A stretch of 64,000 nucleotides of DNA. Source: a virus. The stretch lies in the IMG/VR virus record IMGVR_UViG_3300045988_167652; one strand, 5' to 3'. Positions 1 through 61,236 of the stretch are shown in pieces (the stretch's first letter is position 1; every line of letters starts with the position of its first letter). The notes under the pieces were generated by a model. It did no database searches. It had not been told where the DNA came from and saw nothing but the letters and a program-made list of their open reading frames with translations. The translations under genes were made by a program, and so were the position numbers.

Positions 1-29
1 CTTATTAGACTTGTTAACTTTATTATCCA

Positions 30-55
30 TAGTTTATATAGTTTATATAGTTTAT
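30..55. repeat. Tandem 9-nt repeat TAGTTTATA, about 2.9 copies, abutting a leftward ATG (reverse-complement ATG at 28-30)
   Basis: Units read directly at 30-38, 39-47 and 48-55. Confidence 0.8.
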
Positions 56-144
56 CATAAGGGGATATGTTCCCCTCATTAATTATGGGGGGTGGGGTAG
101 GAGGTTCTTATCTAACACATATATAAATATATATAACATAATAA

Positions 145-182
145 ATATCTTACATACACACAAATATATCTTACATACACAC
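145..182. repeat. Perfect 17-bp direct repeat ATATCTTACATACACAC, two copies with 21-bp periodicity (iteron-like)
   Basis: Copies at 145-161 and 166-182, in an ORF-free region. Confidence 0.8.
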
Positions 183-358
183 CAGAATAACATTTATAAC
201 AATCAAAAAACTAATAAAAAATTTGTGTTAAGAATACATTTTAAAGAATAATCGAACGAATAAACCAACGAAAAGCTGACTAATAATTATATAAAAAATA
301 GCACAATGAAGACATAAAACTAATAGATTAGAACTAATAAAACATATAAATCAATACT

Positions 359-440
359 AATAATAGTAGTTTTATATACTCAAAATTGGCTAATATTATT
401 ATGAAAACTATATAAAATATGAATTAAAACTACTATTATT
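359..440. repeat. Perfect 16-bp inverted repeat with a 50-nt spacer
   Basis: AATAATAGTAGTTTTA at 359-374 is the exact reverse complement of TAAAACTACTATTATT at 425-440. Confidence 0.8.
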
Positions 441-819
441 TATAGATGAAAAATAAGTGTTAGGTTATACAGAGTAAGAAATAATTACTTATCATATTTA
501 CTATAGATAGACTTTATAAAACATATATTTTAATTTAAGAAAAACCATTCCAAATAACAACAAACTCCCTAAATCCCTTAAACCACCTAACTAAAATATC
601 AATTACAAAAGTAGTAGGGATATAATTTATTTTATAGTTTTTATAGTGGAGGATAAGTATTATTACCTTACAGAAGAATACATAAATGAATAACCACAAA
701 AATAATTTTTATATTTTATTTTTATGGTTTATACAGTATAAAATAATAAGTTTTGAAGGGTGGAAGAAGGGGGGTAGGTTGGTAGTATTTTTAATATTTT
801 ACTAAAGGAAAAATGATTT

Positions 820-1053
820 TTATTCAGTAGAACTATTAAAGAATAAACATAATTCATTATAATTTTCAATAGTAGGACTATTAATAAATGTAGGAATAGG
901 ATCATATATTTGAATAGAAGAACCATGATTATTTAATAGTTTTACTAATAAATAATATTGTTTATTAGAATAAATAGTAACTAATTTTTCAGTAGATTTA
1001 TTTCCTAAAAGATATAATTTTAATTGTTTAGGAAACTTATTTATAGTAATCAT
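820..1053 (-). CDS. Hypothetical small protein (77 aa)
   Basis: Intact standard-code ORF with non-repetitive composition. It overlaps the 729-926 ORF, which looks spurious. I recognise no motif. Confidence 0.35.
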   Translation of the reverse strand: MITINKFPKQLKLYLLGNKSTEKLVTIYSNKQYYLLVKLLNNHGSSIQIYDPIPTFINSPTIENYNELCLFFNSSTE

Positions 1054-1978
1054 AAGATATTTATAGAGTAACTTTCATAGTTTATTCTTTAAATAATAGG
1101 ATATAAATATACAATGGATATAGTACTATATAAAAGTAGTCAAAATTTAAAATTAATACTTCTCTTAATTCAATTTTGACTATTCTATCAATCCCAATTT
1201 TTAATACTTTATTTTAATCCTACTTCTTTATCTTTTCTTCTTCCTTAAACTCGACTTTCTTTTTTACTTATCTTTTATATCTATCTTTTAGTAGTAGGTT
1301 ATTAATTATTATGTTTTTTTCTTTTAAATCAGTGTTTGTAGTACTTTTTGTGAAGTTAGATTTTGGATATAGTGTTCCCTCTTTAGCGTCGATTTTTTTA
1401 AAAAAGAAAAAAACAAACAGCTAATCACCCTAATAATAAATTATTTTGGGTTTTTATTTTTTAACTTCATAGGCAGCAGAGAATTTACATCTTGTAAATC
1501 TGCCCGCTTAATATTATTAGTTTTATCAGGCTAATAGTATTAAAGATAGACTTTTGGTCCTTCCACTCCCACTTCTATCAGTTAGTTTTTTATCACTATT
1601 GATAGAACACCTTCAACCTTTATGTGGGGCTATCTTCCTACTTATATAAAAAATATTTTTGATAGTGTCGGGGAAAACCTTTATGCTTATGTATAAAATT
1701 CAATCATATAATGATAATTGAAAGTTGCATAAAGTAACCCGACGTCTGAACCTATTACTTGTTTGCGCTAAAACCATCATAGGCTGATTAACCTCAGGCA
1801 GGTTACTATCGCTGCAAATATACAACATATTTTTAATATACAAACATGTTAATGAAATTTATTTATTAGTAAAGAAATAATTTATTAATAATACAGTCTA
1901 TTTTATACTTATATGTTAAATAACTATAAATAATAATAGTTTTTTATCTTTTATGGTTTCTATATAAAATTAAATTTA

Positions 1979-1986
1979 TATTTTTG
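1979..1986 (+). promoter_or_regulatory. Bacteroidota-type -7 promoter box (TAnnTTTG), candidate promoter for the leader and tRNA transcript
   Basis: TATTTTTG read at 1979-1986. A second match, TAGGTTTG, lies at 2024-2031. There is no well-spaced -33 TTTG. Confidence 0.3.
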
Positions 1987-2229
1987 CATTGGTATCGGAA
2001 GTAACCCAACGTCTATGTCTTTTTAGGTTTGTGAAAATATAGAAAGACTAACTCCTGTGAATGATTTCAATTTAGTATTATATAGCCCGCTTTTAATACT
2101 GAATTTTAGAGTTTGATTCTCTTTACAGGAGCAAAAATATACATATAATTTCAGAGTAAATTAATAGTATAGGCTTTAATTTTTTTTCATTTTGTAGTCC
2201 TAAGTCATGACTTTAAACTGACTTACATA

Positions 2230-2299
2230 GCGGATAGGTGTAATGGTTGCATATTAGCCTCATAAGCTAAAGGTAATAAGTTCGATTCTTATATCCGCA
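2230..2299 (+). tRNA. tRNA with anticodon CAT (Met, or Ile2 if lysidine-modified); no encoded CCA
   Basis: Hand-folded cloverleaf. Acceptor GCGGAT pairs with ATCCGC. Anticodon stem TTAGC/GCTAA, loop CTCATAA. T arm ATAAG-TTCGATT-CTTAT. The acceptor/T-stem junction is one nt short, so the ends are +/-1. Confidence 0.8.
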
Positions 2300-2340
2300 A
2301 CTAAATATTAATACTACTAATACTTATGAATTAATCACAT

Positions 2341-2412
2341 TGAGGTATGGTGTAATGGTTAACACAATTCTCTCTAAAAGAATAGATGAAGGTTCAAATC
2401 CTTCTGCCTTAA
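2341..2412 (+). tRNA. Amber suppressor tRNA, anticodon CTA (reads UAG), probably Gln-type; no encoded CCA
   Basis: Canonical 72-nt cloverleaf. Acceptor TGAGGTA/TGCCTTA (U1:A72). D stem GTGT/ACAC with loop AATGGTTA. Anticodon stem ATTCT/AGAAT, loop CT-CTA-AA (anticodon at 2374-2376). T arm GAAGG-TTCAAAT-CCTTC. Confidence 0.9.
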
Positions 2413-2444
2413 CTAATTAAATTAATTTATTACATATATAATAT

Positions 2445-2798
2445 ATGAATACACCAATTAGCAATTTAACTAAAGAACAAATTGAAAAGCCATCCATTCC
2501 TTTTACAGTAGAAGAATTAAAATCATTAGGATTTGAACAAAACAAAAAGCATATAAATTTCTATTTCAAATAGGTATCTTTAAGATTATATTAGGGAGAT
2601 ATATGTAATTTTATATCTATATCTATAGAAGAAGATAATTATGTTACTATAGCTTTTACTACAGATAGAACACAATATTTAGTAGCATTTCAAGGTAAAT
2701 TATTATATTTTGAAGATTTTGAAAGAATGTTTTTTAATTTTTTCTTTAAAGAAAGGGATTAGAAAATATATAAAGAATTAATTACATATAGAGATTAA
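2445..2798 (+). CDS. Hypothetical protein (117 codons with TAG as sense; 42 codons under the standard code)
   Basis: ATG at 2445. In-frame TAG at 2571, 2592 and 2760. TAA at 2796. I hand-translated it, and coding-like composition continues past each TAG. Confidence 0.45.
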
Positions 2799-2811
2799 AA
2801 ATATATAAACA

Positions 2812-3198
2812 ATGAAGAAAATAAAAGAATTTTTTGTCAGGTGGTATGATTGGTTTTGTAATGAATTTACTACAGAAAATTCATATTTATATCAAGAATG
2901 TTATGAACATCTTGAACCTAAAATTACAGAAGAATCTACTAAAGAAAATAAAGAAATAAATGAAACAGTTACTAAAGAAATTATTGATCCTGTTAGAGAA
3001 AATAGCAGAAAAAAGAGCAATAAAAAAAGGAATACCCCCTCAACAGATAATAGAGAAAAGCAGAAAAAAAGCGAAGAAAATGAGGCAGAAAATATTCTGC
3101 AAAGCGTGGAAAGCAATGAAACAGTCAGAAAGAAGACTGAAAGAAATGGAAGAAAAAAGTTGAAGGAAAAATCCCTAAAGAAGAAGATTATAGAGTAA
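2812..3198 (+). CDS. Hypothetical Lys/Glu-rich protein
   Basis: 128-aa TAG-free ORF. The C-terminal half is low complexity and is overlapped by open alternative frames (see findings). Confidence 0.45.
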   Translation: MKKIKEFFVRWYDWFCNEFTTENSYLYQECYEHLEPKITEESTKENKEINETVTKEIIDPVRENSRKKSNKKRNTPSTDNREKQKKSEENEAENILQSVESNETVRKKTERNGRKKLKEKSLKKKIIE

Positions 3199-3266
3199 AA
3201 GTAGCTGAAAAAAGAAAAAGATTAAAGAATAAAGGTGATACTAAATAAGAATAAAAACTATGTTTT

Positions 3267-3494
3267 ATGTTAGAAAAATTAGATATTCACACTATAAAAC
3301 ATAAACTTTTATCAGAAAGGTTTAATGATGAGCCTGTATATTATTGTACAAGATGTTTATCATTAAAGATAAGAGGAATGAGGGATATAGAATACTGTGA
3401 TTAGTGTGGATCAGTAAATATAGCTATTACTAATATCTTTGATTGGGAAGATAGATATAAAAGAAAGTATAAACATAACTTTATAGAACATTAA
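3267..3494 (+). CDS. Small zinc-ribbon protein (75 codons)
   Basis: Hand translation MLEKLD...YYCTRCLSL...EYCD[TAG]CGS... The two CxxC knuckles are complete only if TAG 3402-3404 is a sense codon. Confidence 0.55.
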
Positions 3495-5076: not shown

Positions 5077-5637
5077 ATGTAGTTATTTAAATATGAGAAC
5101 TATCAAGTATCATTCTCTCCTTATATAATCAGCATTAAAGCCTTTAGAAACATTATAAATAAGGATAAAAGTAAAGATAAGGATAAAGCCATATCTCTTT
5201 TATCCTTTATTTATTTTTATGTTGATCCGAGAAGTGATTATATGTATTTGATAGATAAAGAATCAAGGTAGAAATTAATATGTGAACATTTAGGGTTACC
5301 TGATAACATCTTAAAGGATAAAGATTTGTAGGAAGCTATTAGCGTATATAAAGAATTAGTTCATACTATATCATCAGACTTACTTTATACCACTAAGGAA
5401 TTGATATCAAAACTTTAGCAATAGCTTAAAAGTATAGATATTAATGAAAAGGATGATAAGGGTAAGTTGGTTTATTCTCCTTAGCAGATAGCTAAAACTA
5501 TTAATGAAGTACCTGAATTAATAGAAACTCTTAATAAAGTATAGAAAAAAGTATTCCAAGAAATTCAAGATAATGAAAACATCAGAGGAGACCAAGAACT
5601 TGCAGTCCTTGAAGATGGTGTACGATAGAAAGATTAA
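5077..5637 (+). CDS. Hypothetical protein directly upstream of TerL (small-terminase position), beginning ATG-TAG
   Basis: Hand translation of 186 codons with several in-frame TAGs, including TAG-CAA-TAG at 5416-5424. ATG 5077 is followed by TAG 5080. TAA at 5635. Confidence 0.5.
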
Positions 5638-7915
5638 TGAAGTCAATTCTTAGATAACGGAAGAATTACTAAGTGTTTTATCGGAAGAATATAGAGAAAT
5701 ATTCTTTGATATGATAGAACATGTACCTTTTATAAGAAATTTAATAGCTAAAGATAGAAAGAAAGCAAAAGATTTACCTAAAGATGATAAAGGAAGAATT
5801 ATAGTAGATATATGTAATCCTCATATACTTGAAGATATGGATTACTTTAGACCTGCTGCTATTTTTTTTGAAAAACATGGTTGTTATACTAAGTTAAAAC
5901 CTAATTCAAATCCTAATTCAGATTTTAGAAAATGGTTGGATGAAGAAGTAAGAAGAATACTTGAAGGATATGTTAGACCTGATGGTGAATGGGTTACAGG
6001 ATTAATGTATTTTTATATGAACTATTGTCCTATTATGGTTCATAAGAAAGACAAATCAGGTAAAAAATTAAATCGCATGGAAGGATTTCCTGATTGTTGG
6101 GATAGTGCATATTTAATTACTCATTATCTTGATTAGGCTCTTGAAGGAGGTATTTATAACGATTTTAAAGGAAATGAACATGCAGGATTAATAGCTAAAC
6201 GTGGGTTAGGAAAAAGTTATTTATTATCCGCTATTTTATCAAGATTATTTAAGGTAGGTAAAGATTCTGAAGTTACTAAAGATACATTAGGTACTATAGT
6301 AGCTAACGGTAAAACATATCTTCAAAATGTAAACTCAGGAACACTTCCTAAATACACTAATATTATAGACTTCTTAGATGTACATATGCACTTTCCCAGA
6401 TTAAGAATTAAATCTTCTTTATCAGATATGTAGTGGTAGTTAGGATATAAAAAGTCCGGTTCAGATGTTCTTTATGGTACAAGAAATGCTACTTTAGGAT
6501 TAAGTATTACAGATGATCCTGATAAAGTCAGAGGTAATCGTTCTATGGCTTTATTATATGAAGAATTTGGTACTATAGATAATTTTCTTACAGCACTTAA
6601 CACTTCAAGATATAATGTGGAAGATGGTGATTATTTGTTTGGTCAGATATTCTTTTTAGGTACTGGAGGAACTAAAGGTAATTCATTTATAGGGGCTTAG
6701 GAAGTAATTTATCATCCTAAAGGATATAAAGTTTATTCTTTACCTAATGTATTTGATAAAGAAGGTAAAGGTAAGGGGGAAAGCATCCTTTTTATGGGAG
6801 CTTATATGTCAAGAAAAGGATGTATAGATGAAAATGGTAATAGTGATGTTATTAAAGCATTGGTTTAGGTACTTAAAGACAGACAAACTACTAAACAAAA
6901 TTCATCAGACCCTTCTACTATTGCATAGAAAGTAGCTGAGCTTCCTCTTACTATTCAGGAAGCCATATTAACAGCGGAAAGAAATAAATTCCCTGTTAAA
7001 GATATATCTCAGGCTCTTAGAGATTTATTGGAATCGGATATATTAAATAATACTTACAATGCTGATTTAGTATTTGATAAACAGAAAGTAATATGTGTTC
7101 CTTCTTCAGAATCTCCTATTATTTATTTTCCTCATAAGACTAATAAATTAGTAGGATGTCCTTAGATATTTGAAATGCCTTAGAAAGATTCAAAAGGTAT
7201 TATTCCTTCAGGAAGATATATTATAGGTAATGACCCTGTGGATGATGATGAATCAGAAACACTATCATTAATGAGTTCATTTGTACTTGATTTATGGACT
7301 GATATTATAGTAGCAGAATATACGGGAAGACCTTCAACCACTAATGAATATTATGAGAATTTAAGAAAGTTAGCATTATTTTATAATGCTACTATTATGT
7401 ATGAAAATAATAAGAAAGGATTATATGCTTATATGTCTATGATGAATTGTGTTTATCTTTTAGCTGATACTCCTGACTATTTAAAAGAAAAAGATTATAC
7501 TAAAACAAGTACTAATAACACTACTAAAGGATATTATGCTTCTTAGCCAGTTAAATCTTATGGAATGAGATTAATTAATCAGTGGCTATTAAAACCTTAT
7601 ACTGAAATAATCGAAGGAATAGAAATAACTAAACCACTGCTTTATAAATAGCCTTCAATTCCTTTATTTTAGGAATTATCTTTATGGAATCCTGATGGTA
7701 ACTATGATAGAGTATCTGCTCTTATAGGATTAATGCTTTACAGAGAATAGAAATTAATGATGTTAAGAGGTAAAGACCCAAGTAGTATGTATAATGATGA
7801 CAGTAATTCAATTATGAAAGATGATTTTATTATTAAAACACTAAACAAAATGAATAGAAAACAGTCTTTAGGATATTTGGATGGAATGAATTATTTACAG
7901 TTAATGAATAGATAA
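5615..7915 (+). CDS. terL: Terminase large subunit
   Basis: Track fragments 5711-6136 and 7238-7546 share one frame, and I hand-joined that frame across about a dozen TAGs. Walker A-like AKRGLGKS, acidic nuclease-type segment GNDPVDDDES, TAA at 7913. Start uncertain (ATG at 5573, 5615 or 5711). Confidence 0.85.
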
Positions 7916-8018: not shown

Positions 8019-10361
8019 ATGAATTACAAATCCTTTCCAAGATAGAATCTTTCTTATAAGAAAAAAGATAAATAGTGGAGAAAAGATCATTTAGATTGGG
8101 CGGAATCTAATGGTTATTTTTATAATTCTTCTGTAAGAAAATCAAGAAGGAATAAGATTATTAATCGTAATCTTATTGATGGTATCATACACATGGAAGA
8201 TGTAATAAGTATTCTTAATCCTTTAGGAATAACTGATTCTTATAATCCTGAATAGATATAGCATTATCCTGTTATCAATTCAAAACTTAATCTTTTAAAG
8301 GGAGAAGAATCTTCAAGACCTTATGATTTTAGAGTAATTATAACTAATCCCACTTCAATTTCAGAAATTGAAAAAAGTAAGAAAGAAGAATGGAAATAGA
8401 GAATTATTCAGGAAGTACAAGACACATCAATTACTGAAGAATAGTTTAATCAAAATATACAAAGATTAGATCATTATTATAATTATGAGTGGAAAGATTT
8501 AAGAGAAATAAGAGCTAATGCTTTACTTAATCATTATACAAAAGAACTGGATGTTCATGTAAAGTTTAATGATGGTTTTTCAAATGCTCATACTTATGGT
8601 GAAGAAGTATATTTAATAGATATAGTAGGTGGAGATGTTTCTTTGGAAGTACTTGATCCTGTATATATTTCTACTTATGGAAATAGTAGAAGTAGTCATA
8701 TTGAAGATTCGGATATAATTATTATAGAATAGTATTGGTCTAAAGGAAAAATATATGACACTTATTATGATATTCTTTCAAAAGCAGATATAAATAAACT
8801 TGAAAGTAATAAATATGATAGATTATCTAATTATTCGGATCAAGTAGGTATTGATATGCAGGGAGCTATTATAAATAGTCTTGAATTATTTTCAGATAAT
8901 TTCAGCGCTGAATATGAAGATAGTGATGGTAATATTAAGGTACTTAGATTATTTTGGAAATCAAGAAGAAAAATTAAAAGAGTAAAAAGTTATGATTAGT
9001 TTACAGGAGAAGAAATATATGATTTTTATCCTGAAGACTATGTTATTAATGAAGATTTAGGAGAAACTGAAGAAATATATTGGATTAATGAAGCATGGAG
9101 AGGAACTAAAATAGGTAAGGATATTTATGTAGATATGAGACCTTGTCCTGTATAGTTTAATTCCTTAACTAATCCTTCAAGATGTCATTTTGGTATTATA
9201 GGAGAATTGTATAATGTAAATGGAGGAAGACCTTATTCTTTAGTAGATATGATGAAGCCTTTATCCTATTTTTATGATATAGTTCATTATAAATTAAATG
9301 AAGCTATTATTAATAACTGGGGTTCAATTATGACTTTTGATAAGGCTAAAGTTCCTGATAATATGGGATTGGAATAGTGGTTATATATGATTAAAGCGCA
9401 TCATATTAAAATAGAAGATAGTTTTAAAGAAGGTAATATAGGAGCAGCTACAGGTAAATTGGCAGGATATTTAAGTCAAGGAGAAAAATCTTTACTAAAT
9501 GCGGATAATGGATAGTATATAGGTTATCTTTAGAATGTACTTGCTTACATAAAACTTGAACTTCAGGAATTGGTAGGTATTACTAAACAAAGAGAGGGTC
9601 AAATATCTAATAGGGAAACTGTAGGAGGAGTTGAAAGAGCTACTTTACAATCTTCTCATATTACTGAATGGTTATTTATTAAACATAATAACTTAAAGAA
9701 AAGAGTTCTTGAAGCTATTCTTGAAACAGCTAAAATAGCCTTAAGAGGTAGAAAATATAAGTTTTTATATATCCTTCCTAATGGTATTGAAAAATTAATA
9801 GAGATTGATGGGGATCAATTTTCAGAACATGATTATGGATTAGTAGTTGAAGATGATAGATATACATAGGAATTAAAAGGTAAGATAGATACTTTGGCTT
9901 AGGCTGCTTTACAAAATCAAACTTTATCCTTTTCAACTATTTTACAATTATATACTAACAGTTCATTAATGGCTAAACAAAGATATATTGAAAGGGATGA
10001 ACAGGAAAGAAAACAAGAATCTCAGAATATACAATAGCAGCAAAATGAACTTGCATAGCAGGAATTAGCTCAAAGAAAAGAACAGGAAGAATTAAGAATG
10101 CAGTTTGAAGATTAGAAAAACATAAGAGATAATGAAACTAAACTTATGATTGCTAAACTTAATAGAGAATCTATACTACATGATAATGAAGATAATTATA
10201 ACCCTGATAATTTATCTAAAGAAGAATTAATGGAAAAAATAAGACAATTTGACACTAAAATGAAATTTGAAAACAAAAAGCTTGATTAGGAAAAACAATT
10301 AAAATTAAAAGAATTAAGTCTTAGAAACGATAAATCTATTGATAATTTAAAAAGTAAATGA
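8019..10361 (+). CDS. Portal protein
   Basis: 780 codons in a single frame. I hand-translated the N-terminal ~140 codons and 8940-9640. Portal-like core ...GITKQREGQISNRETVGGVERATLQSSHITEWLF... Located immediately after TerL. TGA at 10359. Confidence 0.8.
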
Positions 10362-10458: not shown

Positions 10459-12327
10459 ATGAATATCTTTTATGGACATAACAAGTGTGAACAAGATAAG
10501 AAAATATCTTGTTTAAAGAGTTATACACAGTGGTTATTATGTATTTCAGAAAGGGTTAAAGATGTACTGATGGAAAGAAATTTAATGACTGAGTAGGAAG
10601 GATATGAAAAAATGCCTTCAATTATCGGTAGAGCATTAAATAATATGAATTAGAATCCAACTCCTAATCCTAATTAGAAAACTGAAAAACCGCTTACTAT
10701 TATTCCTTAGTTTAATTCTTCTTAGAATGAATTAATATATGATGAACCTAATACAGTTTATACTCCTGTAAAAATCATTAAAGATAATAATCTTATTTCA
10801 CAGAATATAATAAAAGGAGTGACTATTTATGGTGTTACAGGTACTAAGGAATGTAATGGAGGGGGTGGAGGAAGTACTTGTCCTGATACAAGTACTTTGA
10901 CTATTCCTTTGAATTTAATGCATTATAAGACATTCAATGCTCCTCCGGGTATAGTATTTAATAAAGTACTTCTTGATGCGAGTTATTATGAAAATACTAC
11001 TGTGCAGGCAGGTTCAAAATTAAATGGTATTTATATGAACTGTACTGTTCCTACAGGTTCTAATCCTCTTAATCTTCAAACATTAGATATATATAATAAT
11101 ACTTTTTAGGATAGTGATATTGTTAATTCTCCTTCAGGAACTGCTTACAATAAAGTAGTAAACCATATTCCCAAATATATTAATCAGCAAGTTACTTCAG
11201 GAAGTACTTTAAATGGTTTATATATTAATTGTACTGTTCCTTCAAACGGTGGTGGAGGTACTCAACCATAGATTAATGTTATTCCATATAATAAAACAGT
11301 AACTTCAAAATCATAGTTACCTAATAATGAATAGGCACCTTCAGGTTCAGCATACAGTCCTATTACTGTAAGTATTCCTGATACTCATGATATTTATAAT
11401 AAATCACAAGTACTTACAATAGGAAGTCTGCAAAATACAAGTGCTGTAGAACCCCATGTTCTTGAAGGATTTACTTTTTATATGAAGAATCATGCTAATC
11501 AATTAAAATTTAAAACAGGTTCTATTCCTAATTGTGGTAATGTAGAACAGCAAGCACCATTTGAAGCCAATAATTGTTATTTTCAACATATAAGAATTAC
11601 TGGTAGTGGTGGTGGAGGTTCTGGAAATGAAAATCCTATAAGTAAGTCAAGATTTAATTTACTTGCTACTGATGGAAGTAATATAGGAAATGAGATTTTA
11701 GTATTAAGTAAAGAATAGTTTATTGCTAATCCTTCTTTTTTATATGCAGGATTTACAATATCGGTTTAGGGTGGAACTTATTTTTTTAGAGTGTAGGGAT
11801 TTAGTATTGGTTTAAATAAAACTATATTTTCATCTTATTCAAATAATATAGTATATCCATCAAATAATGATGCTTTCAAATTGGATAATAATCCTTAGGC
11901 AAGTTTGACTTCTTCAAAAACAGGATTAATACAATCTTTATGGTGGATGTCTAATTTTGGAAGACTTAATCCTCCTGAAGGGGAATATGCAGTATTTAAT
12001 AGTGTTCCATATAAAGCTATTCAAAGTGGATACAATTTATTAAGTGCTTATGAATGGAAAGCATTAAATACTTATTTTATAGAAGGAAATTAGGAAAATA
12101 TATGGGATTATTTAGAAAATATTCAGGATTCAAGAATAGGACTTTCATGGAATAATGGTAGAATATGGACTACTACCCCTGTAATGCATGGAGGATAGTT
12201 AAAGGTATGGTCTGCCAGTATAGCAGGTAAAAATGGAGTAAGTTTACATATTGAAAACATGAATACTTAGCTGTTAGGTGTTGATGCTACTAAATATGTT
12301 TCCATATCTCTTTATGATGGATTATAA
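10459..12327 (+). CDS. Tail-fibre or receptor-binding-type protein with internal repeats and poly-Gly linkers
   Basis: Track fragments 10819, 11482 and 11905 share the frame of ATG 10459. Repeated LNG[IL]Y[MI]NCTVP units, GGGG[ST] linkers, TAA at 12325. Confidence 0.6.
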
Positions 12328-12347
12328 TATATAAATAAAATATTAAT

Positions 12348-12737
12348 ATGAAAAACTTTGAACAATATTTAAAAAATCAGAATATAAACATCTCAGAATG
12401 TGGAGGAAATCTTTATGAAACATAGTTATATTATGGTAATGGAATGATGAATCCGGAGGAATGTTCTATTTATATACCATAGAATCAAGTATAGCAAGTT
12501 CCTTGTGGTTGTGGTAAGACTTCTTACTCTCCCAGAGAATACAGTAAAAGAGGATGGATAGCTAATAATGATTGTATTACTGTAACAAGGCAAAGTGATT
12601 GTAATACTTCAGTTTTTCCTAAAGGTAATTGTGGTAATGTTATGTTACATCTTCATAATGTACATGTTCAAAAGGATATGTTTCATATGATTAAATCATT
12701 AAAAAAAATTACAAAAGAACTTTTAAATGAACTTTGA
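12348..12737 (+). CDS. Cys-rich hypothetical protein (129 codons), possibly a fibre accessory protein
   Basis: Hand translation with 3 in-frame TAGs and TGA at 12735. Embedded between fibre genes. Confidence 0.5.
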
Positions 12738-12738
12738 T

Positions 12739-13866
12739 ATGTTAAACGATAAAGATAATATATATAACCATATAGGCATACCATAGCCTACACAGTTTGA
12801 TTAGGATGATATTTCTTCCGAAGGATTCGATAAATATGATACTATCGTAGAAAGTATCAAATTATCTATTTATCTTAAACAGATAAAAAAACTTCTTATT
12901 AAGAAGAATATTATTTAGGAGAATACTCCACTGTCAGATTGGATAATGTTTTTAGATGCTAATACAGCATAGTAGAATTATCTTATAGTAGACAGTATCG
13001 ATGATAGAAATCTTATTAATAAGCCTGCTTCAGGATTATTAGTTTTTTGTAAGTCTGAATAGGAATTATTTATTAGAGTAGGTTCATAGTGGTTATCATT
13101 ACCTATAAAAATGGGTTCATACCTATCTGTATTTAATGGGACATTATCTATTAATATTCCTAAAATTATTCAAGACTTTAATATTAATACTGGAGGTGGT
13201 GGTTCTATAGTTTAGGTATAGGCTGATTATAATGAAACTAATTCTTCGTCTCCTGCATATATTAAAAATAAGCCTACTATTCCTACTAAAGTATCATAGC
13301 TTTAGAATGATTCTGAATTTATTACTAAAGAAGTAAATAACCTAACCAATTATCATACTAAAGTTGAAATACAAACTCTTATTAATGAGCTTGTAAAAGA
13401 TTCTGAATTACAAAATAAAGTACTTCAGATTATTAATAATAATTTATCCGCTGTAAATAATTATAAAATATATGAGAGATATGATTAGTTTCCTACAAAT
13501 CCTAATAAAGGGACATTAGCTTATGCTTAGGACACTAAAAAAGTTTATATTTATAAAGATAGTTGGGAAGAATGGAAACCTGGTGGAGATTCTGAATACC
13601 ATGTAGTAAATAATATAGCTGAAAGAGATTAGTTAACTGCTACTGAAGGACTTCTTTGTTATGTAAAAGATGGTGGTGGGAATAATCCTAAACTTTTCTT
13701 ATATACTGGAGGAACTTGGATAGAACAACCTATTAAATTCGATGCAAATACATTAGTTATTTCTAATGGAGAATTGAAAGTTATAGGTGGAGGAGGAGGT
13801 GGTGGAGGTACTACTGATACAGTAGTTACTGTAACCACTGATTATATAGATAGTTTATTTAATTAA
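12739..13866 (+). CDS. Tail fibre protein
   Basis: Hand translation of 375 codons. Contains the widespread phage-fibre motif ADYNETNSSSPAYIKNKPTIPTKVS-Q-L-Q-NDSEFIT (both Q are TAG). GGGGS and G8 linkers. TAA at 13864. Confidence 0.65.
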
Positions 13867-21157: not shown

Positions 21158-22342
21158 ATGGGAATATTATCAATGGATAACGTCTTAGATGACGAAAAAA
21201 TAGTAGAAAATATATTTAGTGATTCACCCTTTCCAAATGAGGAAAATAAGACTGAAACTTCAGAGGAAGATAAGTCTAAAGAAGAATCAAATAAAGAAAA
21301 AAACAACAATAAACCACTTAGTGAACAGGAAGTAGTAGAATTATTTAATAATAATACTGCAACTGTGGAGAGCGTAGCTAAGGAAGAAAAAGGTAAGGAG
21401 AACACCTCTTCTATTAAAGAAGAAAAAGAAAAAGATGATACTCCTGATAATAACTTTTACTCTTCCATTGCTTCAGCTTTAATGGGGGATGGTGTTCTTA
21501 GCCTTACTCTTTCTGATGAGGAATTAGGTAATATTAAAACACCTGAAGATTTTACAGAACTAATCACTAAGGAAATTAATAACAGGTTTGATGAATCTCA
21601 AAGAAGATTAAAAGAAGCACTTGATTTAGGTATTAATCCTAAAGAAATCAAATCTTATGAAGATACTATTAATAATCTTCAGAATCTTAGAAACCAAGAT
21701 TTTTCAGGTGATGATGAACCATCTATCAATCTTAGAAAACAATTAATCTTTAGAGATTTTATTAATAAAGGATTTTCAGAAGAAAAGGCTATCAGATACA
21801 CCGAAAGAAGTATTTCTACAGGAAATGATATTGAAGATGCTAAAGAAGCTCTTGAAAGTAATATAGAATACTTTGAAGCCCTTAAAAATTCTAAGTATGA
21901 AGAAGCTAAACAAAGTATTGAAAAAGAAAAAGAGAGAAAAGCTAATGAAATTAATATCTTACATAAGAAGTTTAAAGAGAATAAACAATTTGAAGGTATT
22001 GATGTAGATGAAGCCACAAGACTTAAAGCCCTTCAGAATATTACTAAAGTAGTAGGAAAAGATGAATATGGAAACCCTTTAACTGAAATACAAAAATATC
22101 AAAATGAAAATCGTGAGGAGTTTCTATATAAATTAAGTATGTTATACACTCTTACAGATGGATTTAAAAACTTTGATAGATTTGTAGCTCCTAAAGTAAA
22201 TAAAGAATATAAGAAAAATGTAAAAGACTTAGCTAATAAGCTTAACTTAACTAATAGAGATATGTTTGGTAATGTAGAACAAAGAATAGATACTAAAGAC
22301 ACTAATTCTTATTCAGGACTTACAGTTCCAGACTTGTTTTAA
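21158..22342 (+). CDS. Putative scaffolding protein (acidic, coiled coil)
   Basis: 394-aa TAG-free ORF immediately upstream of the MCP gene, highly charged and helical. Function assigned by position only. Confidence 0.55.
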   Translation: MGILSMDNVLDDEKIVENIFSDSPFPNEENKTETSEEDKSKEESNKEKNNNKPLSEQEVVELFNNNTATVESVAKEEKGKENTSSIKEEKEKDDTPDNNFYSSIASALMGDGVLSLTLSDEELGNIKTPEDFTELITKEINNRFDESQRRLKEALDLGINPKEIKSYEDTINNLQNLRNQDFSGDDEPSINLRKQLIFRDFINKGFSEEKAIRYTERSISTGNDIEDAKEALESNIEYFEALKNSKYEEAKQSIEKEKERKANEINILHKKFKENKQFEGIDVDEATRLKALQNITKVVGKDEYGNPLTEIQKYQNENREEFLYKLSMLYTLTDGFKNFDRFVAPKVNKEYKKNVKDLANKLNLTNRDMFGNVEQRIDTKDTNSYSGLTVPDLF

Positions 22343-22406: not shown

Positions 22407-23909
22407 ATGGCAAAATTGAATCCGTATGAAATGGTATCTTTCTCAAGTTGGAAAGGTATTTCACTTGAAAATCACTTTAATTCTTTGGCTTAGACAAGTC
22501 CACAGCTTGCTACTACTTAGATGATCAGGCTTCTTGAAGCTAAACGAAAAGGAAATTATTTGGAAGGAATTTTGAGTAAATTTCCTACTAAAGTGTTTGA
22601 TAATGATACTTATTATTACTGGCATGTAGTAGGTGCTTAGTATGTTCATGGTATCCTTGTAGAAGCACGTGATAAAGAAGGTCAACCTATTAATGTAAGT
22701 ACTTTTGTAGGAGTTAATGGCGATGAATTTTATCTGGTATTCCGTGAAGATGTATTTGCTAAAGGAGAAATGATTGTAGGAGAACTTAATGAAGAATATC
22801 CTATTCTTATTAAGGAAGCTGCTGTCATGGAAGGGAGTAATGCAGTTTATAAATGTGAACTGTATGGTAATGTTTAGGAATTTGGTATGCCTTATGAGGA
22901 GCTTGTAGAAGGAAAAAGATTTAGTGCTGAATATAATCCTGTACCTTCAGAACTTTCAAGAGAAGCTGGAGATGTAAGATTTACCAGTGCATCAAAGATG
23001 GAAAATGAATGGTCTACTCTTCGTCTTCAACATAAAGTTCCTGGTAGTGCTATGGATAGAAAATTGGCTATCGGCCTTCCTTTTCAAAAAGAAGATGGAA
23101 GTATTGTAGTAAATACTATGTGGATGCAGCATGTTGAATGGACTGTAGAAAAAACTTTCTCAGAACAGAAAAACAGATGTTTGATGTTTGGAGTATCGAA
23201 TAGAAATTCTAATGGTGAGTATGTAAATATTGATAGTCGTACAGGTATGGTTATTAAGACTGGTGATGGTCTTAGAAAACTTCAATCTTATAATGGTACT
23301 ATTTATTATACCGACTTTAGTCTTTCATTGATTGAAAAAGCTCTTTATGATATTACTGATGGCACTGATGAAATCGGAGGTGTTTTTCTTATGAAAACAG
23401 GAAAACGTGGTGCTGCTTTATTTAATCGTGCAGTAATGGATAAAATTTCAGGATGGGAGAGATTTGAACTTTCAGCTTCAGATTTGGGAATAGTAAAACG
23501 TACTAATTCAAATCTTCATGATACTGCTCTTTCTGTAGGTTATCAGTTTACTGAATATCGTGCTCCTATGGGAATTATAGTAAAACTTGAAGTTGATCCT
23601 ATGTATGATGATCCTGAAAGAAATAAACTTCGTCATCCTCTTGGAGGCCTTGCCGAATCTTATAGATTTGATATTTATAAGATGGGAAGCAAAGACAATC
23701 CTAATGTTCAGTTGGCAATAAATAAAATGCACCTTGAACAAAGAGGTTATCAAAGTGGATTCCGTAATCCTTATACAGGAAAGAATAACATTGAATTTAT
23801 GTCTACTGATGAAGATAGTGCAAAAATTCATCGTTATTGGCAAGGTGGAGTAATTTGTTATGACATGGGAATGGTTAAAAGTTTAGTTCCCTGTTGTGCA
23901 GCTGGATAA
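22407..23909 (+). CDS. Major capsid protein (HK97-fold, crAss-like)
   Basis: ATG 22407 is in frame with track ORF 22887-23909. 4 in-frame TAGs at 22491, 22518, 22638 and 22875. About 500 aa, followed by a strong hairpin. Sequence and position are as in crAss-like MCPs. Confidence 0.8.
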
Positions 23910-23982: not shown

Positions 23983-25017
23983 ATGGGAAGAAAACCTTAT
24001 AAATCAGGAGAAAATAATATGGAAATGGTAAATGAAAATTCAATGGAAGGGATTGTAGGAGTTCCTGAAGCTGAAGAAATAAAAGAAACAGTAAAACCTT
24101 CCTACACTACTAACAACTACACTTACAAAGAAGAAGAAGTAGCAAGTGGAGAAGGACTAATTAATTGTCTACAGAATAGAAAAGTAACTATTCAGTTTAT
24201 AAAAAGACAAAGAGGTAATATAACGAATAAAGACCATTTCTTTTATGGTGGGTTAGCACAAAAAGGAACATTCTTTGTATGTGTGCCTCTACTTAAAACA
24301 GGACAATTAATGAATATTCTTACCGATGATGAAAAAAATTATCTTGAATATGCGTTAGGATTACCTAAAAATTCACTCAGTATTTATGCTAAAAAAGATA
24401 ACTTCTGGCATAATAGAGGATTTACAATTGGTAAGGAAGGAATCACACTTGATTTAAGTTCTCCTATGGATTATATCTATTATAAGATAGCACAAGCAAA
24501 CGGTAATCTTATTTGTAAATCTGTAAAAGAATTACAAGATAAACCTAAAGCTACTTATATGTTTGTTATAGTAGATGATACCAGTAAGAAGGAACTTGAA
24601 ACTGTAGAAACCGATATTAATATTAAAGCATGGATTAATTTTGGTAAGATTCAAACTGATAAATACACAATGGTAACTATTATAGAACTTATGACAGGAA
24701 AACCATTTAATGTATTTCAAGATATTAACATAGTTAAGAATGCTCTTAATAATTTAATTAAGAAAGATGCTAAACTATTCCTTAACTTTGTAGAAGATAA
24801 GATGATTGGTTTTAAAACCCTTATTAAGAAAGGAATTGCACTTAACTTAATTTCAAAAAGAGATAATTATTACTACATTAAAGAAACAAATGAACCTATG
24901 TGTGGCAGTAATGAAACCCCTAATTTAAATATGGCTGCAAAATGGTTAGCTGATCCTACAAATCAAGAGTTTAAATTTAGTATTGAAGCTAAATATGAAG
25001 CTCAAAAGAAAGCATAA
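23983..25017 (+). CDS. Conserved virion-module protein of unknown function (344 aa)
   Basis: Intact TAG-free ORF downstream of the MCP gene. Confidence 0.7.
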   Translation: MGRKPYKSGENNMEMVNENSMEGIVGVPEAEEIKETVKPSYTTNNYTYKEEEVASGEGLINCLQNRKVTIQFIKRQRGNITNKDHFFYGGLAQKGTFFVCVPLLKTGQLMNILTDDEKNYLEYALGLPKNSLSIYAKKDNFWHNRGFTIGKEGITLDLSSPMDYIYYKIAQANGNLICKSVKELQDKPKATYMFVIVDDTSKKELETVETDINIKAWINFGKIQTDKYTMVTIIELMTGKPFNVFQDINIVKNALNNLIKKDAKLFLNFVEDKMIGFKTLIKKGIALNLISKRDNYYYIKETNEPMCGSNETPNLNMAAKWLADPTNQEFKFSIEAKYEAQKKA

Positions 25018-28452: not shown

Positions 28453-29136
28453 ATGACTTACGGAGAAGCTGTTTATATGATTCTTGATCAATTGAAACTA
28501 ACATCCGATGATGCTAATTTTAATGAAAATCATGTTATATTCTTACTTAATAAGTATAGAGCTTTAGCTATTAAAGAAGAATATGAAAGAACTAAAAAGG
28601 AACTTGATGAATCAAATAAACAATTATTATGTTTAGATTTAATTGAAGTTCCGGCTATTTCAGGAGAAGTATGTGAAGAAGGAACTTATCTTAGAAGCGT
28701 AAATAAACTTCCTAAAATTTTAAATCTTCATCATAATGATATTCAAGTTACTATTATGGATTATTTTAATAGTAACATATCATATGTTTCAGTAGATAGA
28801 TTTAGATGGGTAGGACATAATAAATGGCTAAAAAATATTATTTATGCTACTATAGCTCCTGATAATTATGTTTATTTAAAATCTGATAATCCACAGTTTC
28901 TTTATCTTGAAAAAATAAAATTATCAGCCATATTTGAAGACCCTGAAAAAGTACAAGATTTATTATGTGATAAAGAAAATTTTGATACTATATGTGATAT
29001 ACTCGAAAGAGATTTTCCTGTAGAAATGGCATTAGTTCCTTCCATACTTGAAAGAGTAAGAAGAGAACTTTATCAATCTTTATATAATAAAGAAGATGAA
29101 AATAATAATGCAAAAGATGATTTAGCTGAAAGATAA
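28453..29136 (+). CDS. Conserved structural-module protein (227 aa)
   Basis: Intact TAG-free ORF. Confidence 0.7.
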   Translation: MTYGEAVYMILDQLKLTSDDANFNENHVIFLLNKYRALAIKEEYERTKKELDESNKQLLCLDLIEVPAISGEVCEEGTYLRSVNKLPKILNLHHNDIQVTIMDYFNSNISYVSVDRFRWVGHNKWLKNIIYATIAPDNYVYLKSDNPQFLYLEKIKLSAIFEDPEKVQDLLCDKENFDTICDILERDFPVEMALVPSILERVRRELYQSLYNKEDENNNAKDDLAER

Positions 29137-58312: not shown

Positions 58313-58319
58313 AAAATTT

Positions 58320-59649: not shown

Positions 59650-59675
59650 AATTTTAAATTTTTCTTTTTAATATT

Positions 59676-60272: not shown

Positions 60273-60293
60273 ATTAATTTAAATATAGACTTA

Positions 60294-60977: not shown

Positions 60978-61173
60978 AGTTAGGTATTAAATATAATTCT
61001 TTATTTATTTTAAAAGGACTTTCATCACTTATTTTTACTAATATAGAATTAATAATATTGTGATATTCTGATGGAATAACGAGAGGAAAATATTTATTAT
61101 TATATTTAACAGTAATAATATAATCTCCCTCTTCTATTTTATCAAGTTCATTTTGATTTTTATTTTTGTCCAT
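60967..61173 (-). CDS. Hypothetical small protein (68 aa)
   Basis: Intact ORF whose end overlaps the start of the next gene by 11 nt. Confidence 0.5.
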   Translation of the reverse strand: MDKNKNQNELDKIEEGDYIITVKYNNKYFPLVIPSEYHNIINSILVKISDESPFKINKELYLIPNYES

Positions 61174-61195
61174 AATTTATTGTTATAAATAAAAT

Positions 61196-61220: not shown

Positions 61221-61236
61221 AAATTAATATATTATT

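Follow-up and report, generated by a model that had tools for sequence, protein, structure and literature searches.

A probable glutamine-type amber suppressor tRNA at the head of the TAG-recoded block of a divergent crAss-like phage

The suppressor tRNA gene and its neighborhood

The window analyzed here is a stretch of 64,000 nucleotides of viral DNA, and the features that bear on this report are listed in Table 1. The gene of main interest is 72 nt long and folds into a canonical cloverleaf. ARAGORN reports it at 2341-2413 on the plus strand, with the anticodon cta at gene position 34 (window 2374-2376). The Rfam tRNA model (RF00005) matches 2341-2412 over its full length with 68 bits (E=1e-12), the gathering score of the model being 29. 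The anticodon loop CU-CUA-AA has 7 nt (2372-2378) with CUA at positions 34-36, and all of the stem pairs in the Rfam alignment are standard if G-U is counted as standard. Both programs therefore agree with a preliminary description of this DNA, made from the letters alone, which had proposed this cloverleaf and this loop. The gene does not encode a CCA end. The isotype label that ARAGORN gives to the suppressor, 'Pyl', reflects the anticodon alone.

The suppressor sequence is identical in phage L001, and the exact allele of the window is found in one IMG/VR contig only. The orthologous gene in L002, a sister genome that is 93% identical, shows, relative to it, three double-compensatory pairs in the anticodon stem; these changes count as support for the view that the fold would be under purifying selection.

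A second tRNA gene on this strand, which the preliminary description did not mention, ends 40 nt before the suppressor. It is a tRNA-Met(CAU) whose first acceptor pair is flagged as non-standard in the Rfam alignment. Downstream of the suppressor, the next ORF starts at 2445. Thus, the suppressor does lie just upstream of the first TAG-containing ORF, as previously described, but the gap is 32 nt rather than 33 nt. This ORF has no PHROG match.

The ORF-free region of about 1.2 kb that had been noted upstream is also present (1054-2228), and it separates small, TAG-free ORFs on the minus strand from the recoded block on the plus strand. The GC skew turns positive at about position 2000. From 1800 to 2340, identity to L001 and L002 is 94-100% per 50-nt window, except for 2000-2049 (86% to L002), whereas from 1050 to 1800 it is only 50-90%. 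The best sigma-70-like site in positions 1-3300 precedes the two tRNA genes by about 80 nt. All three phages have the same two hexamers, and L002 differs at two spacer bases. Shuffled sequence would be expected to contain at least as many sigma-70-like sites as this region does, and the candidate might function as a promoter. A complete copy of the Bacteroidota-type promoter motif (consensus TTTG...TAnnTTTG) does not occur anywhere in the window, and the motif shows no enrichment ahead of genes. The region also has a 16-nt GC-rich repeat in two copies only, at 1732 and 1999, one of which is exactly conserved in L001.

Table 1. Features of the window
Feature	Position	Strand	Basis
77-aa ORF bounding the ORF-free region	820-1053	-	ORF map
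ORF-free divergent intergenic region	1054-2228	.	No ORF ≥50 aa; none ≥80 aa under the TAG-sense code
Conserved non-coding block, including tRNA-Met	1800-2340	+	Identity to L001 and L002
Sigma-70-like promoter candidate, TTTACA-16-TATAAT	2122-2149	+	11/12 consensus
tRNA-Met(CAU), A1/A72 mismatch	2229-2300	+	ARAGORN; Rfam, 54 bits; conserved in L002
tRNA(CUA), predicted amber suppressor with glutamine-type identity	2341-2412	+	ARAGORN; Rfam tRNA; identity positions
TAG-recoded block, 34 ORFs, 326 in-frame TAGs	2445-57603	+	ORF map; PHROG; Steigviridae synteny
First TAG-containing ORF, 117 codons, 3 TAGs	2445-2798	+	TAG-sense ORF map; ortholog in L002
TerL, 13 TAGs	5573-7915	+	PHROG
Portal, 18 TAGs	8019-10361	+	PHROG
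Major capsid protein, 4 TAGs	22407-23909	+	PHROG
Giant ORF, 42 TAGs	40435-45870	+	ORF map
Giant ORF, 76 TAGs, 3,903 codons	45892-57603	+	ORF map
Standard-code-compatible block, TAG neither sense nor stop	57674-63861	-	ORF map

Phage lineage and TAG recoding

The window encodes a crAss-type TerL, portal and major capsid protein, as identified by PHROG matches, and has a syntenic virion block with giant RNAP-like proteins. In tblastn searches, the major capsid protein is 47-50% identical to those of cr111_1, cr85_1, IAS virus, DAC15 and the crAss001-like PhiCrAssBcn phages of Bacteroides, and it is at most 50% identical to that of any deposited phage. crAss001 itself is among the TerL DNA matches, and the gene order agrees with Steigviridae annotations. 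From these similarities, we assign the phage, with a GC content of 26.6% in the window, to a divergent crAss-like (Steigviridae-like) lineage of the Crassvirales.

Long ORFs cover 51% of the window under the standard code, 54% if TGA is read as sense and 94% if TAG is read as sense, so the recoded block of the preliminary description is clearly present. It extends over about 55 kb with the suppressor gene at its head. All of the in-frame TAGs are on the plus strand; the minus-strand ORFs have none, and TAA and TGA are the only stops in use in the window. The sole apparent TAGs in the minus-strand block, in an ORF call at 61807-62406, precede the point at which a P-loop kinase gene probably begins. 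The recoding is confined to the late, structural module, and the early module fits the standard code.

Two comparisons address the meaning of TAG. In the distant one, 139 TAG positions were aligned to homologs in distant crAss phages that use the standard code. Glutamine is the top residue in these columns (21% of the cells, 5.6-fold enriched), glutamate is second (15%, 2.1-fold) and tryptophan is depleted (0.18-fold). The log-likelihood of the column profile is also by far the best for glutamine (-3165), lysine being next (-3481); the value for glutamate is -3488. In the close comparison, orthologs were taken from relatives whose plus-strand block is 93-96% identical. Among 47 orthologous changes to or from TAG, 41 involve a glutamine codon (26 CAG and 15 CAA) and six involve other codons. 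These results show that TAG stands for glutamine in the plus-strand block, and the share of TAG among the putative glutamine codons there, 42%, adds to this support. The bases at +4 and -1 of TAG show no bias relative to CAA, CAG or all codons.

A Pfam search that covered the minus-strand ORFs and, on the plus strand, two small ORFs returned the P-loop kinase only, and no release factor, aminoacyl-tRNA synthetase or tRNA-modification gene. No release factor was found within the window, which covers 64 kb of a genome of about 92 kb; an RF2 or a synthetase gene could sit outside it.

Proposed function and position of the suppressor

The fold, the anticodon, the glutamine-type nucleotides described below, the reading of TAG as glutamine in the plus-strand block and the TAG-free opposite block are direct observations. 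Taken as a whole, they are best explained by a functional, phage-encoded amber suppressor that would be charged with glutamine and decode the virion and packaging block, and we consider this explanation highly probable. Indirect support comes from the 326 conserved in-frame TAGs in essential genes, which would require such a decoder. The earlier suggestion that the phage carries its own decoder for the alternative code is likewise supported by the glutamine comparisons and by the identity nucleotides.

We infer the expression of tRNA(CUA), as well as any role of it in timing. The suppressor and tRNA-Met are probably transcribed together from the conserved region just upstream, and host enzymes probably process tRNA(CUA) and add its CCA end. 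The enzyme that charges it with glutamine would most likely be the host glutaminyl-tRNA synthetase (GlnRS), which presumably recognizes U35, the weak 1:72 pair and the Bacteroidota-type A73. The charged tRNA would then read UAG as glutamine across the block of about 55 kb. The genes on the opposite strand avoid TAG and, therefore, could be translated before any suppressor is present. The 76 TAGs in one gene of 3,903 codons would call for a per-codon read-through of at least about 99% to reach a yield of 50%. Read-through this high would imply that the host RF1 is outcompeted or neutralized.

The preliminary description also proposed that the position of the tRNA could set the timing of late-gene translation, an idea already put forward in the literature as a hypothesis (Borges et al. 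2021, 10.1101/2021.08.26.457843). There is about an even chance, in our judgment, that the position is instead simply an ancestral site for tRNA arrays, that the tRNAs are co-transcribed with the block and that the timing follows from when the block as a whole is transcribed, not from the tRNA. IAS virus, which belongs to the same family and uses the standard code, has an array of 18 tRNAs at the same site, the last one being a tRNA-Met. ARAGORN places this array in the orientation of the block and 16 nt before the first gene of the block, which suggests that the suppressor has inherited its position within the lineage and did not acquire it for the sake of timing. The plus strand has no terminator-like site from the tRNAs to the first ORFs, which argues for co-transcription and against a separate timer, and the first six ORFs past the suppressor have four TAGs in total. 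Nothing speaks directly against the ancestral site, but a tRNA at the 5' end would still accumulate before the distal, TAG-rich genes are reached. Such soft timing would be compatible with the model of Borges et al. and with a concentration model (PMC10879173).

It is unlikely that the main role of the suppressor is to harm the host as an anti-defence weapon by reading through host TAG stops, with decoding of the phage genes being secondary. This role has been proposed in the literature (PMC7886860, discussion; PMC12386605), and some crAss-like phages have CUA suppressors but no recoding (PMC12386605). However, the in-frame TAGs of this phage are present in TerL, the portal, the major capsid protein and the giant virion proteins, which would make decoding indispensable; the two roles are not mutually exclusive.

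Which amino acid is attached to the suppressor

The suppressor has U1:A72, A73, G10, U35 and a 4-nt variable loop; the remaining acceptor pairs considered are G2:U71 and A3:U70, and position 36 is A36. As a stand-in for isotype-specific covariance scoring, tRNAs with the same D-arm, T-loop and 4-nt variable loop were sorted by class. Among the glutamine tRNAs of this scaffold, U1:A72 occurs in 19 of 23 cellular and 44 of 56 viral sequences, and A73 in 20 of 23 and 46 of 56, respectively. All 11 of the tryptophan tRNAs of the same scaffold have G73 together with A1 or G1. Viral CUA tRNAs (n=30) have U1 in 29 cases and A73 in 29, the single outlier having A1 and G73. The suppressor departs from the usual glutamine tRNA at 2:71, which is G:C in 20 of the 23 cellular and 53 of the 56 viral sequences, and 3:70 is variable among natural glutamine tRNAs of this scaffold. 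The cellular glutamine matches are mainly from Bacteroidales, Prevotella and Porphyromonas, and one Bacteroidales MAG has an identical copy of the acceptor 5' strand. The scaffold of D-arm and T-loop was rejected as a guide to the isotype when taken alone; its cellular carriers are mostly tRNA-His (74 of 119), with Gln, Gly, Asp, Pro and Trp also represented.

Judged by these positions, the suppressor bears the glutamine signature of Bacteroidota and phage tRNAs and not the tryptophan signature. The comparison with tRNA-Gln genes that the preliminary description proposed thus favors its glutamine assignment; the glutamine-type positions are common to Bacteroidota and phage tRNA-Gln and absent from the tryptophan tRNAs of the same scaffold. 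Its argument from E. coli GlnRS fares less well. The weak first pair U1:A72 and U35, both features of GlnRS substrates, are present, but the E. coli identity set G2:C71, G3:C70 and G36 is not (the suppressor has G2:U71, A3:U70 and A36), and the discriminator A73 agrees with Bacteroidota and phage tRNA-Gln and differs from the G73 of E. coli. These departures would lower confidence in the transfer of E. coli rules, not in the insertion of glutamine. Bacteroidales tRNA-Gln, in which A73 is the rule, is the better yardstick.

Many bacteria do not have a GlnRS, and one might suppose that a non-discriminating GluRS, rather than GlnRS, charges the suppressor with glutamate, which is then kept or is amidated by GatCAB. 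The rank of glutamate as the second commonest residue at the TAG columns agrees with this, but the substitution profile fits glutamine much better than glutamate, none of the 47 orthologous changes is an exchange of TAG with GAA or GAG, and the final residue after amidation would still be glutamine. Moreover, the hosts of Crassvirales are Bacteroidota, which are expected to encode GlnRS, and the nearest cellular tRNAs of the suppressor's type are Bacteroidales tRNA-Gln. We therefore consider charging by GluRS very unlikely.

Measured over its whole length, the suppressor is most similar to one annotated phage tRNA-Trp (78%), and so ancestry is ambiguous if judged from similarity of the tRNA body alone. 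Tryptophan was rejected as the functional assignment, and a tRNA-Trp derivative (CCA to CUA) that places tryptophan at UAG is extremely unlikely: the body does best match the tRNA-Trp of Clostridium phage D-1873 (78-81% identity) and the loop CUCUAAA is one base from the tryptophan loop CUCCAAA, but tryptophan is strongly depleted at the TAG columns, TAG and TGG are exchanged once compared to 41 times for CAG/CAA, the 11 same-scaffold tryptophan tRNAs lack the A73 and U1:A72 of the suppressor, and even Su7, a CUA suppressor derived from E. coli tRNA-Trp, is charged largely with glutamine.

Comparison with known systems

Suppressor tRNAs and reassignment of TAG to glutamine are known from the late genes of crAss-like phages (Yutin et al. 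2021, PMC7886860; Borges et al. 2021, 10.1101/2021.08.26.457843), and code 15 has been proven in such phages by proteomics (Peters et al. 2022, PMC9523058). The window phage resembles them in being a member of the Crassvirales with low GC, in using TAG as sense only in the virion/late block with a standard-compatible replication-side block, and in having a phage-encoded CUA tRNA with glutamine inferred at TAG. It differs in its divergent lineage, as measured by the major capsid protein, and in a tRNA allele restricted to one IMG/VR contig.

The classical amber suppressor supE44 (glnV44) of E. coli is a tRNA-Gln in which CUG has changed to CUA, and it inserts glutamine at UAG. The window tRNA shares with it a CUA anticodon on a glutamine-type body with U1:A72, U35 and G10. 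It differs in having A73 instead of G73 and G2:U71 and A3:U70 instead of G:C pairs, and its loop has A36-A37-A38, the context that is typical when a tRNA reads codons starting with U. In addition, supE suppresses weakly, and its cell still uses TAG as a stop, whereas the share of TAG among the putative glutamine codons of the window phage would require nearly complete read-through.

Theta ribozymes, which are minimal HDV-like ribozymes, flank phage tRNA-Sup, tRNA-Met and tRNA-Leu genes (Kienbeck et al. [quoted passage not shown] Those systems and ours have in common gut Bacteroidota phages, code 15, Met and Sup tRNAs and the lack of an encoded CCA. However, the two window tRNAs have no theta ribozyme next to them: the 3' flanks of these tRNAs (40 and 32 nt) are AT-rich and their first base is C rather than G1, and no HDV-like Rfam match at E≤1 was found beside them.

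Lak megaphages combine a tRNA(CUA) with RF2, and they also have tRNAs that contain short 'enigmatic' introns (Devoto et al. 2019, PMC6784885). They resemble the window phage in that TAG recoding is concentrated in structural genes, in the phage CUA tRNA and in a GC content of about 26%. The differences are that no release factor was found in the 64-kb window and that relatives of the window phage have group-I-like introns at U35|A36 of the suppressor, which the main text of PMC6784885 does not describe.

Intron-split suppressor genes in relatives

In L002, the orthologous suppressor (5778-6893 of that genome) is split at U35|A36 by a 1,044-nt, group-I-like intron that encodes an HNH protein; the predicted spliced exon junction is GGCTGTCTCTAAAACAGC. 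At least 14 IMG/VR viral contigs, most of them demonstrably TAG-recoded, have CUA tRNAs split at the same site, with at least seven exon/intron combinations and two unrelated intron families. Intron length is about 220 nt, or about 1 kb in those that contain an HNH gene. ARAGORN misses these split genes or mislabels them as tRNA-Lys(CUU), His or Ser.

In all 11 of the split loci whose 3' exon is in the examined sequence (seven exon/intron combinations), the U|...G| rule holds and removal of the intron restores CUA. P7 is invariant, and P8 has compensatory changes at four of six pairs. In the compact intron of L273 (split gene at 665-960), the last exon U pairs in P1 with the G of GGAG, and a narrow scan with the Rfam group I model (RF00028) aligned it over its full length, including R and S elements, with 16.8 bits (threshold 50; E=0.049). 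The model had no match on the L002 insert or in a 50-kb multi-locus scan, P1 and an internal guide sequence of the ORF-bearing family were not found by eye, and when viral contigs were searched with the L002 HNH protein, it matched only itself.

Group I introns are known from the anticodon loops of bacterial tRNAs, for example cyanobacterial tRNA-Leu(UAA) and Azoarcus tRNA-Ile (PMC3984707; PMC13168695). The introns of the relatives resemble them in lying within the anticodon loop, in a 5' exon that ends in U and an intron that ends in G, and in R/S-like core elements with P7-P8-P7'. They differ in that they interrupt the gene of a phage suppressor tRNA, in that most copies have an HNH endonuclease ORF, and in their Rfam scores, which are below threshold for the compact form and nil for the ORF-bearing form.

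With the intron taken out, L280 and L286 have the same sequence as intact genes of other phages, and so intron-minus alleles exist. The intron-free allele of the window differs from the L002 allele at 10 positions, all within tRNA positions 22-47 around the insertion site; the window allele could either predate invasion or be resistant to homing. From these patterns, there is a fair chance, roughly one way as much as the other, that the suppressor-tRNA gene of recoded phages serves as a homing site for self-splicing introns.

Significance

The strategy described here is real but has already been well described, and it leaves existing knowledge unchanged; the window adds a clean, well-supported example of code 15 in a divergent crAss-like lineage. 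Gene calling on the contig needs to be done with TAG as glutamine. Given a per-codon read-through of about 99% or better, a full mechanism would have to account for the competition with the host RF1.

The side finding of introns in the relatives outweighs the main one. Only about 40% of TAG-recoded phages have a suppressor tRNA that surveys pick up, and the survey authors blame 'divergent' tRNAs for the rest. Intron-split suppressors offer a concrete, checkable cause for part of this gap, as well as for mis-annotation as tRNA-Lys(CUU). If this is true, then split genes that are invisible to default tRNA finders would explain some of the recoded phages without a detectable suppressor. If the introns do splice, then the switch to code 15 in these phages would depend on a ribozyme step, which would make a ribozyme and a homing endonuclease central to the code switch.

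The suppressor tRNA gene and its surroundings

The tRNA(CUA) gene at 2341-2412 (+), the suppressor, carries the anticodon cta at gene position 34 according to ARAGORN, and it matches the Rfam tRNA model over its full length with 68 bits (E=1e-12; model threshold 29 bits). All of its stem pairs are standard, G-U counted, and CCA is not encoded. The canonical tRNA with the loop CU-CUA-AA claimed in a preliminary description is therefore borne out, as is the anticodon for which an ARAGORN run had been proposed; the program's 'Pyl' label reflects the anticodon only. The A36-A37-A38 of the loop is typical of tRNAs for codons that start with U, and is the motif for A37 isopentenylation.

The same description placed the tRNA 33 nt before the first TAG-containing gene and after an ORF-free stretch. 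The adjoining ORF does have three in-frame TAGs, but it starts at 2445, so that the gap is 32 nt; upstream, 1054-2228 has no ORF of at least 50 aa. Both ARAGORN and Rfam also find a tRNA-Met(CAU) at 2229-2300 (+), 40 nt 5' of the suppressor, which that description lacked. It is a candidate initiator, elongator or tRNA-Ile2 type, with an A1/A72 mismatch but without the three G:C anticodon-stem pairs of a canonical initiator. In L001, a closely related IMG/VR contig, a G-to-A change in the anticodon stem causes ARAGORN to miss it.

Features of the suppressor, of the window and of the split gene in the sister genome L002
Feature	Position	Strand	Details	Source
Suppressor acceptor stem			UGAGGUA/UGCCUUA; U1:A72, G2:U71, A3:U70	Read from sequence
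Suppressor position 10			G10	Read from sequence
Suppressor D-arm			GUGU-AAUGGUUA-ACAC	Read from sequence
Suppressor anticodon stem			AUUCU/AGAAU	Read from sequence
Suppressor anticodon loop	2374-2376 (anticodon)	+	CU-CUA-AA	Read from sequence
Suppressor variable loop			4 nt, AGAU	Read from sequence
Suppressor T-arm			GAAGG-UUCAAAU-CCUUC	Read from sequence
Suppressor discriminator			A73	Read from sequence
TerL	5573-7915			PHROGs
Portal	8019-10361			PHROGs
Major head protein	22407-23909			PHROGs
L002 exon 1	5778-5812		Ends ...CUCU	Alignment to window suppressor
L002 insert	5813-6856		1,044 nt; 267-aa ORF above Pfam HNH threshold	
L002 exon 2	6857-6893		Begins AAA-ACAGC	Alignment to window suppressor

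The suppressor is identical in L001 (95.7% identity to the window over the 16 kb compared). The exons of L002 (93% identity over 13.6 kb aligned in the plus-strand block) differ from it at 10 places, all within positions 22-47, and three anticodon-stem pairs have changed in a doubly compensatory way (A27:U43 to G:C, U28:A42 to C:G and C30:G40 to G:C). These comparisons speak for selection on the gene. Between 1800 and the tRNA, identity among the three phages is 94-100%, except for one 50-nt window with 86% versus L002. The region 1050-1800 is hypervariable: even L001, at 96% identity overall, matches it to only 50-90%.

Hairpin-prone, GC-richer stretches lie in the variable part at about 1460-1830 and have no Rfam match. 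A GC-rich 16-nt direct repeat, AAGTAACCC(G/A)ACGTCT, occurs at 1732-1747 and 1999-2014 (+), 267 nt apart (chance expectation, 0.02). The second copy alone is kept exactly in L001, and neither is in L002.

The recoded genome and the amino acid at TAG

The window has a GC content of 26.6%, and its coverage by stop-to-stop ORFs of at least 100 aa rises from 51% with the standard code to 94% with TAG as sense (54% with TGA as sense). Read in this manner, 34 co-oriented ORFs with 326 in-frame TAGs fill 2445-57603, while the minus-strand ORFs at 57674-63861 contain TAG neither in frame nor as a stop codon. The nearest deposited genomes belong to the family Steigviridae of the Crassvirales (cr111_1, cr85_1, IAS virus and DAC15), and crAss001 is among the TerL DNA matches. 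Gene order is kept, although the major capsid proteins of the nearest deposited Steigviridae are only 47-50% identical to that of the window.

Three independent lines agree that TAG encodes glutamine in this phage. First, when 139 window TAG positions were aligned by tblastn to distant crAss homologs that use the standard code (1,218 cells), Gln was the top residue (21% of cells, 5.6-fold over background), followed by Glu (2.1-fold) and Lys (1.6-fold), with Trp at 0.18-fold. The residues in these columns follow the pattern of substitution at the window's Gln codons far better than that at the codons of any other amino acid (log-likelihood -3165; the runner-up scores -3481). Second, TAG is kept 124 times at orthologous codons in L001 and L002, and where it differs it stands opposite CAG (26), CAA (15) or anything else (6). 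Third, with 326 TAG, 332 CAA and 119 CAG codons in the plus-strand block, TAG makes up 42% of the putative Gln codons.

The distribution of TAG is very uneven, from 8 per 1,000 codons in the major capsid protein gene to 17-23 in the giant ORFs and 43 in the ORF at 5077-5637; three ORFs of 227-394 codons within the block (21158-22342, 23983-25017 and 28453-29136) have none. The most abundant proteins may avoid TAG. Gln codons are also scarce in the TAG-free block at 57674-63861 (-), where CAA and CAG make up 0.8% of codons versus 4.3% in the plus-strand block with TAG included. The former block has a P-loop kinase at about 61807-62247 (-) with Pfam matches to AAA_33, Zeta_toxin and KTI12-like, and this kinase is possibly an RNA or nucleotide enzyme of the polynucleotide-kinase type. 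Its ORF call runs upstream across two out-of-gene TAGs, and MDISKYNN is probably the true start.

Glutamine or tryptophan type

When deposited phages were searched with the tRNA region by BLAST, the sole match for the CUA tRNA was an annotated tRNA-Trp of Clostridium phage D-1873, 78% identical overall, and so the ancestry and identity of the suppressor were tested explicitly. One genome per prokaryotic species, as well as IMG/VR, was scanned for the D-arm and T-loop of the suppressor at the same spacing, with the anticodon free. Each scan gave at least 120 matches, so that the isotype counts are samples. Among the matches listed, cellular tRNAs with this scaffold were His (74), Gln (25), Gly (7) and others, and hence the scaffold is not isotype-specific in cells; those on viral contigs were mostly Gln (59), CUA (30) and Trp (11).

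The identity positions do set the classes apart among the matches listed. Gln tRNAs have U1:A72 (19/23 cellular, 44/56 viral), A73 (20/23 and 46/56) and a 4-nt variable loop, Trp tRNAs have A1 or G1 and always G73, and His tRNAs have G1 with C73 or A73. Among the viral CUA tRNAs listed, 29 of 30 have U1 and 29 of 30 have A73, the outlier (L169) having A1 and G73; the suppressor itself, with U1:A72 and A73, agrees with the majority. Most cellular Gln matches listed come from Bacteroidales, Prevotella and Porphyromonas, and one from a Bacteroidales MAG has the suppressor's own acceptor 5' strand, UGAGGUA. From these tallies and the Bacteroidales-dominated matches, we judge the identity nucleotides to be of the Gln type and the Bacteroidota type, in agreement with the hosts that Crassvirales usually infect. 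Of the E. coli rules to which the preliminary description appealed, the suppressor follows only some: it has U1:A72, U35 and G10 but lacks G73, G2:C71 and G3:C70. Its core reading, a phage-encoded amber suppressor that decodes an alternative code, holds, given the Gln-type nucleotides and the Gln at TAG columns and orthologous codons.

The tRNA-Trp(CCA) genes of D-1873 (L026/L231) and of three other phage contigs (L168, L221 and L241) share the unusual 72-nt scaffold of the Gln and CUA tRNAs (D-arm and 4-nt variable loop); they are up to 78% identical to the suppressor and are told apart mainly by G73 and position 1.

Position, transcription and read-through

Suppressor tRNAs and late-gene TAG/TGA reassignment have already been described in crAss-like phages (PMC7886860), TAG as Gln has been proven there by proteomics (PMC9523058), and in a published model a suppressor tRNA, together with early genes in the standard code, controls when structural and lysis genes can be translated (10.1101/2021.08.26.457843). 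The window phage fits this description. The suggestion that the position of the tRNA sets the timing of translation is a conjecture that gained no computed support. The best promoter-like site (2122-2149, TTTACA-16-TATAAT) is conserved, but such sites are not commoner around the tRNAs than in shuffled sequence; no Bacteroidota-type promoter motif is present, nor a terminator-like site between the tRNAs and the downstream ORFs. The standard-code IAS virus, which belongs to the same family, has 18 tRNAs in an array at the same site, including tRNA-Gln(UUG) and with tRNA-Met last, 16 nt before the first gene of the structural block and co-oriented with it (ARAGORN). The suppressor's position therefore looks inherited, and the evidence points to co-transcription with the downstream block. 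The RefSeq table for IAS virus (NC_049978.1, 2463-4861) puts all 18 tRNAs on the minus strand and ARAGORN puts all on the plus strand; the former may be an annotation error.

In phages, many Met and Sup tRNAs have their 3' ends processed by theta ribozymes (PMC10879173); none lies beside the two window tRNAs. With 76 TAGs in an ORF of 3,903 codons, a 50% yield needs about 99.1% read-through per codon, so that host RF1 would have to be outcompeted or disabled. The window ORFs tested include no release factor or synthetase, but some 28 kb of the genome is not part of the window.

Split suppressor genes in other phages

L002 is as TAG-recoded as the window, yet ARAGORN finds no CUA tRNA in it because the orthologous gene (5778-6893) is interrupted between U35 and A36. 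Only one splice choice gives a 5' exon ending in U and an insert ending in G, and it restores the CUCUAAA loop. A scan of IMG/VR for suppressor scaffolds in which a base other than A follows 'CUCU' yielded 17 loci. Of these, 13 are split, and a further split gene (L356, with an insert starting with A) was found later. The 14 contigs (L002, L273, L283, L280, L281, L284, L274, L276, L278, L286, L356, L271, L272 and L279) represent at least seven exon/intron combinations. The U35|...G|A36 rule is obeyed and CUA is restored in all 11 loci whose 3' exon is in the available sequence, and we infer that these genes are spliced. With their inserts removed, L280 and L286 match intact tRNA(CUA) genes of other phages at every base, and on sequence grounds are intron-plus alleles of these intron-minus genes. 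Nine of the ten loci tested are TAG-recoded, ORF coverage rising from 0.10-0.70 to 0.63-0.90 with TAG as sense; the test is uninformative for the tenth, the 3.7-kb L272. Intact CUA tRNAs with this scaffold number at least 120 in IMG/VR, so that the split copies are in the minority, at roughly 10% or less among genes with the scaffold.

The inserts form two families. Those of about 1 kb bear an HNH ORF and share the core CAGCGUGA-(A/C)(C/A)GACU(A/U)AA ... P8 ... GAUG(C/U)(G/A)A(A/U)AGUC ... G, in which P7 is invariant and P8 has compensatory changes at four of its six pairs with all cells pairing, a covariation score reached by 0 of 500 shuffles. A covariance model built from this core, searched against the window plus 257 loci of viruses and phages (2.5 Mb), matches split tRNA(CUA) genes only (65-99 bits). 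It does not match the compact, ORF-less family of about 220 nt (219-223 nt in L273 and L283). The latter aligns at full length to the Rfam group I model, sub-threshold (16.8 bits, E=0.049), with the R and S elements at high posterior probability and a P1 that pairs the final U of the exon with the G of GGAG.

In cr111_1, the nearest deposited relative, the major head protein gene (10981-13396) is annotated in two pieces that flank a homing endonuclease gene, another intron- or intein-type interruption in this phage group.

By default, ARAGORN misses all split genes tested. With introns allowed (-i), it forces an intron of the position 37/38 type, placed at position 34-39, and mislabels 8 of 10 loci as Lys(CUU), His(AUG) or Ser(CGA) (L002, L273, L274, L278, L281, L283, L284 and L286); L272 and L280 go undetected even so. 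Such failures are a likely source of missing or wrong tRNA annotations in recoded phages. Several papers remark that in many recoded phages no suppressor can be detected (10.1101/2021.08.26.457843; PMC7886860; PMC12386605). Short 'enigmatic' tRNA introns are known from Lak phages (PMC6784885); no description of intron-split suppressor tRNAs was found in the searchable literature.

In conclusion, the window suppressor extends a known system to a new, divergent lineage, and its interest is therefore modest. Of greatest interest is a lead next to the original finding, in the split genes of its relatives: the suppressor gene as a recurrent target of group-I-like introns in both related and unrelated recoded phages.
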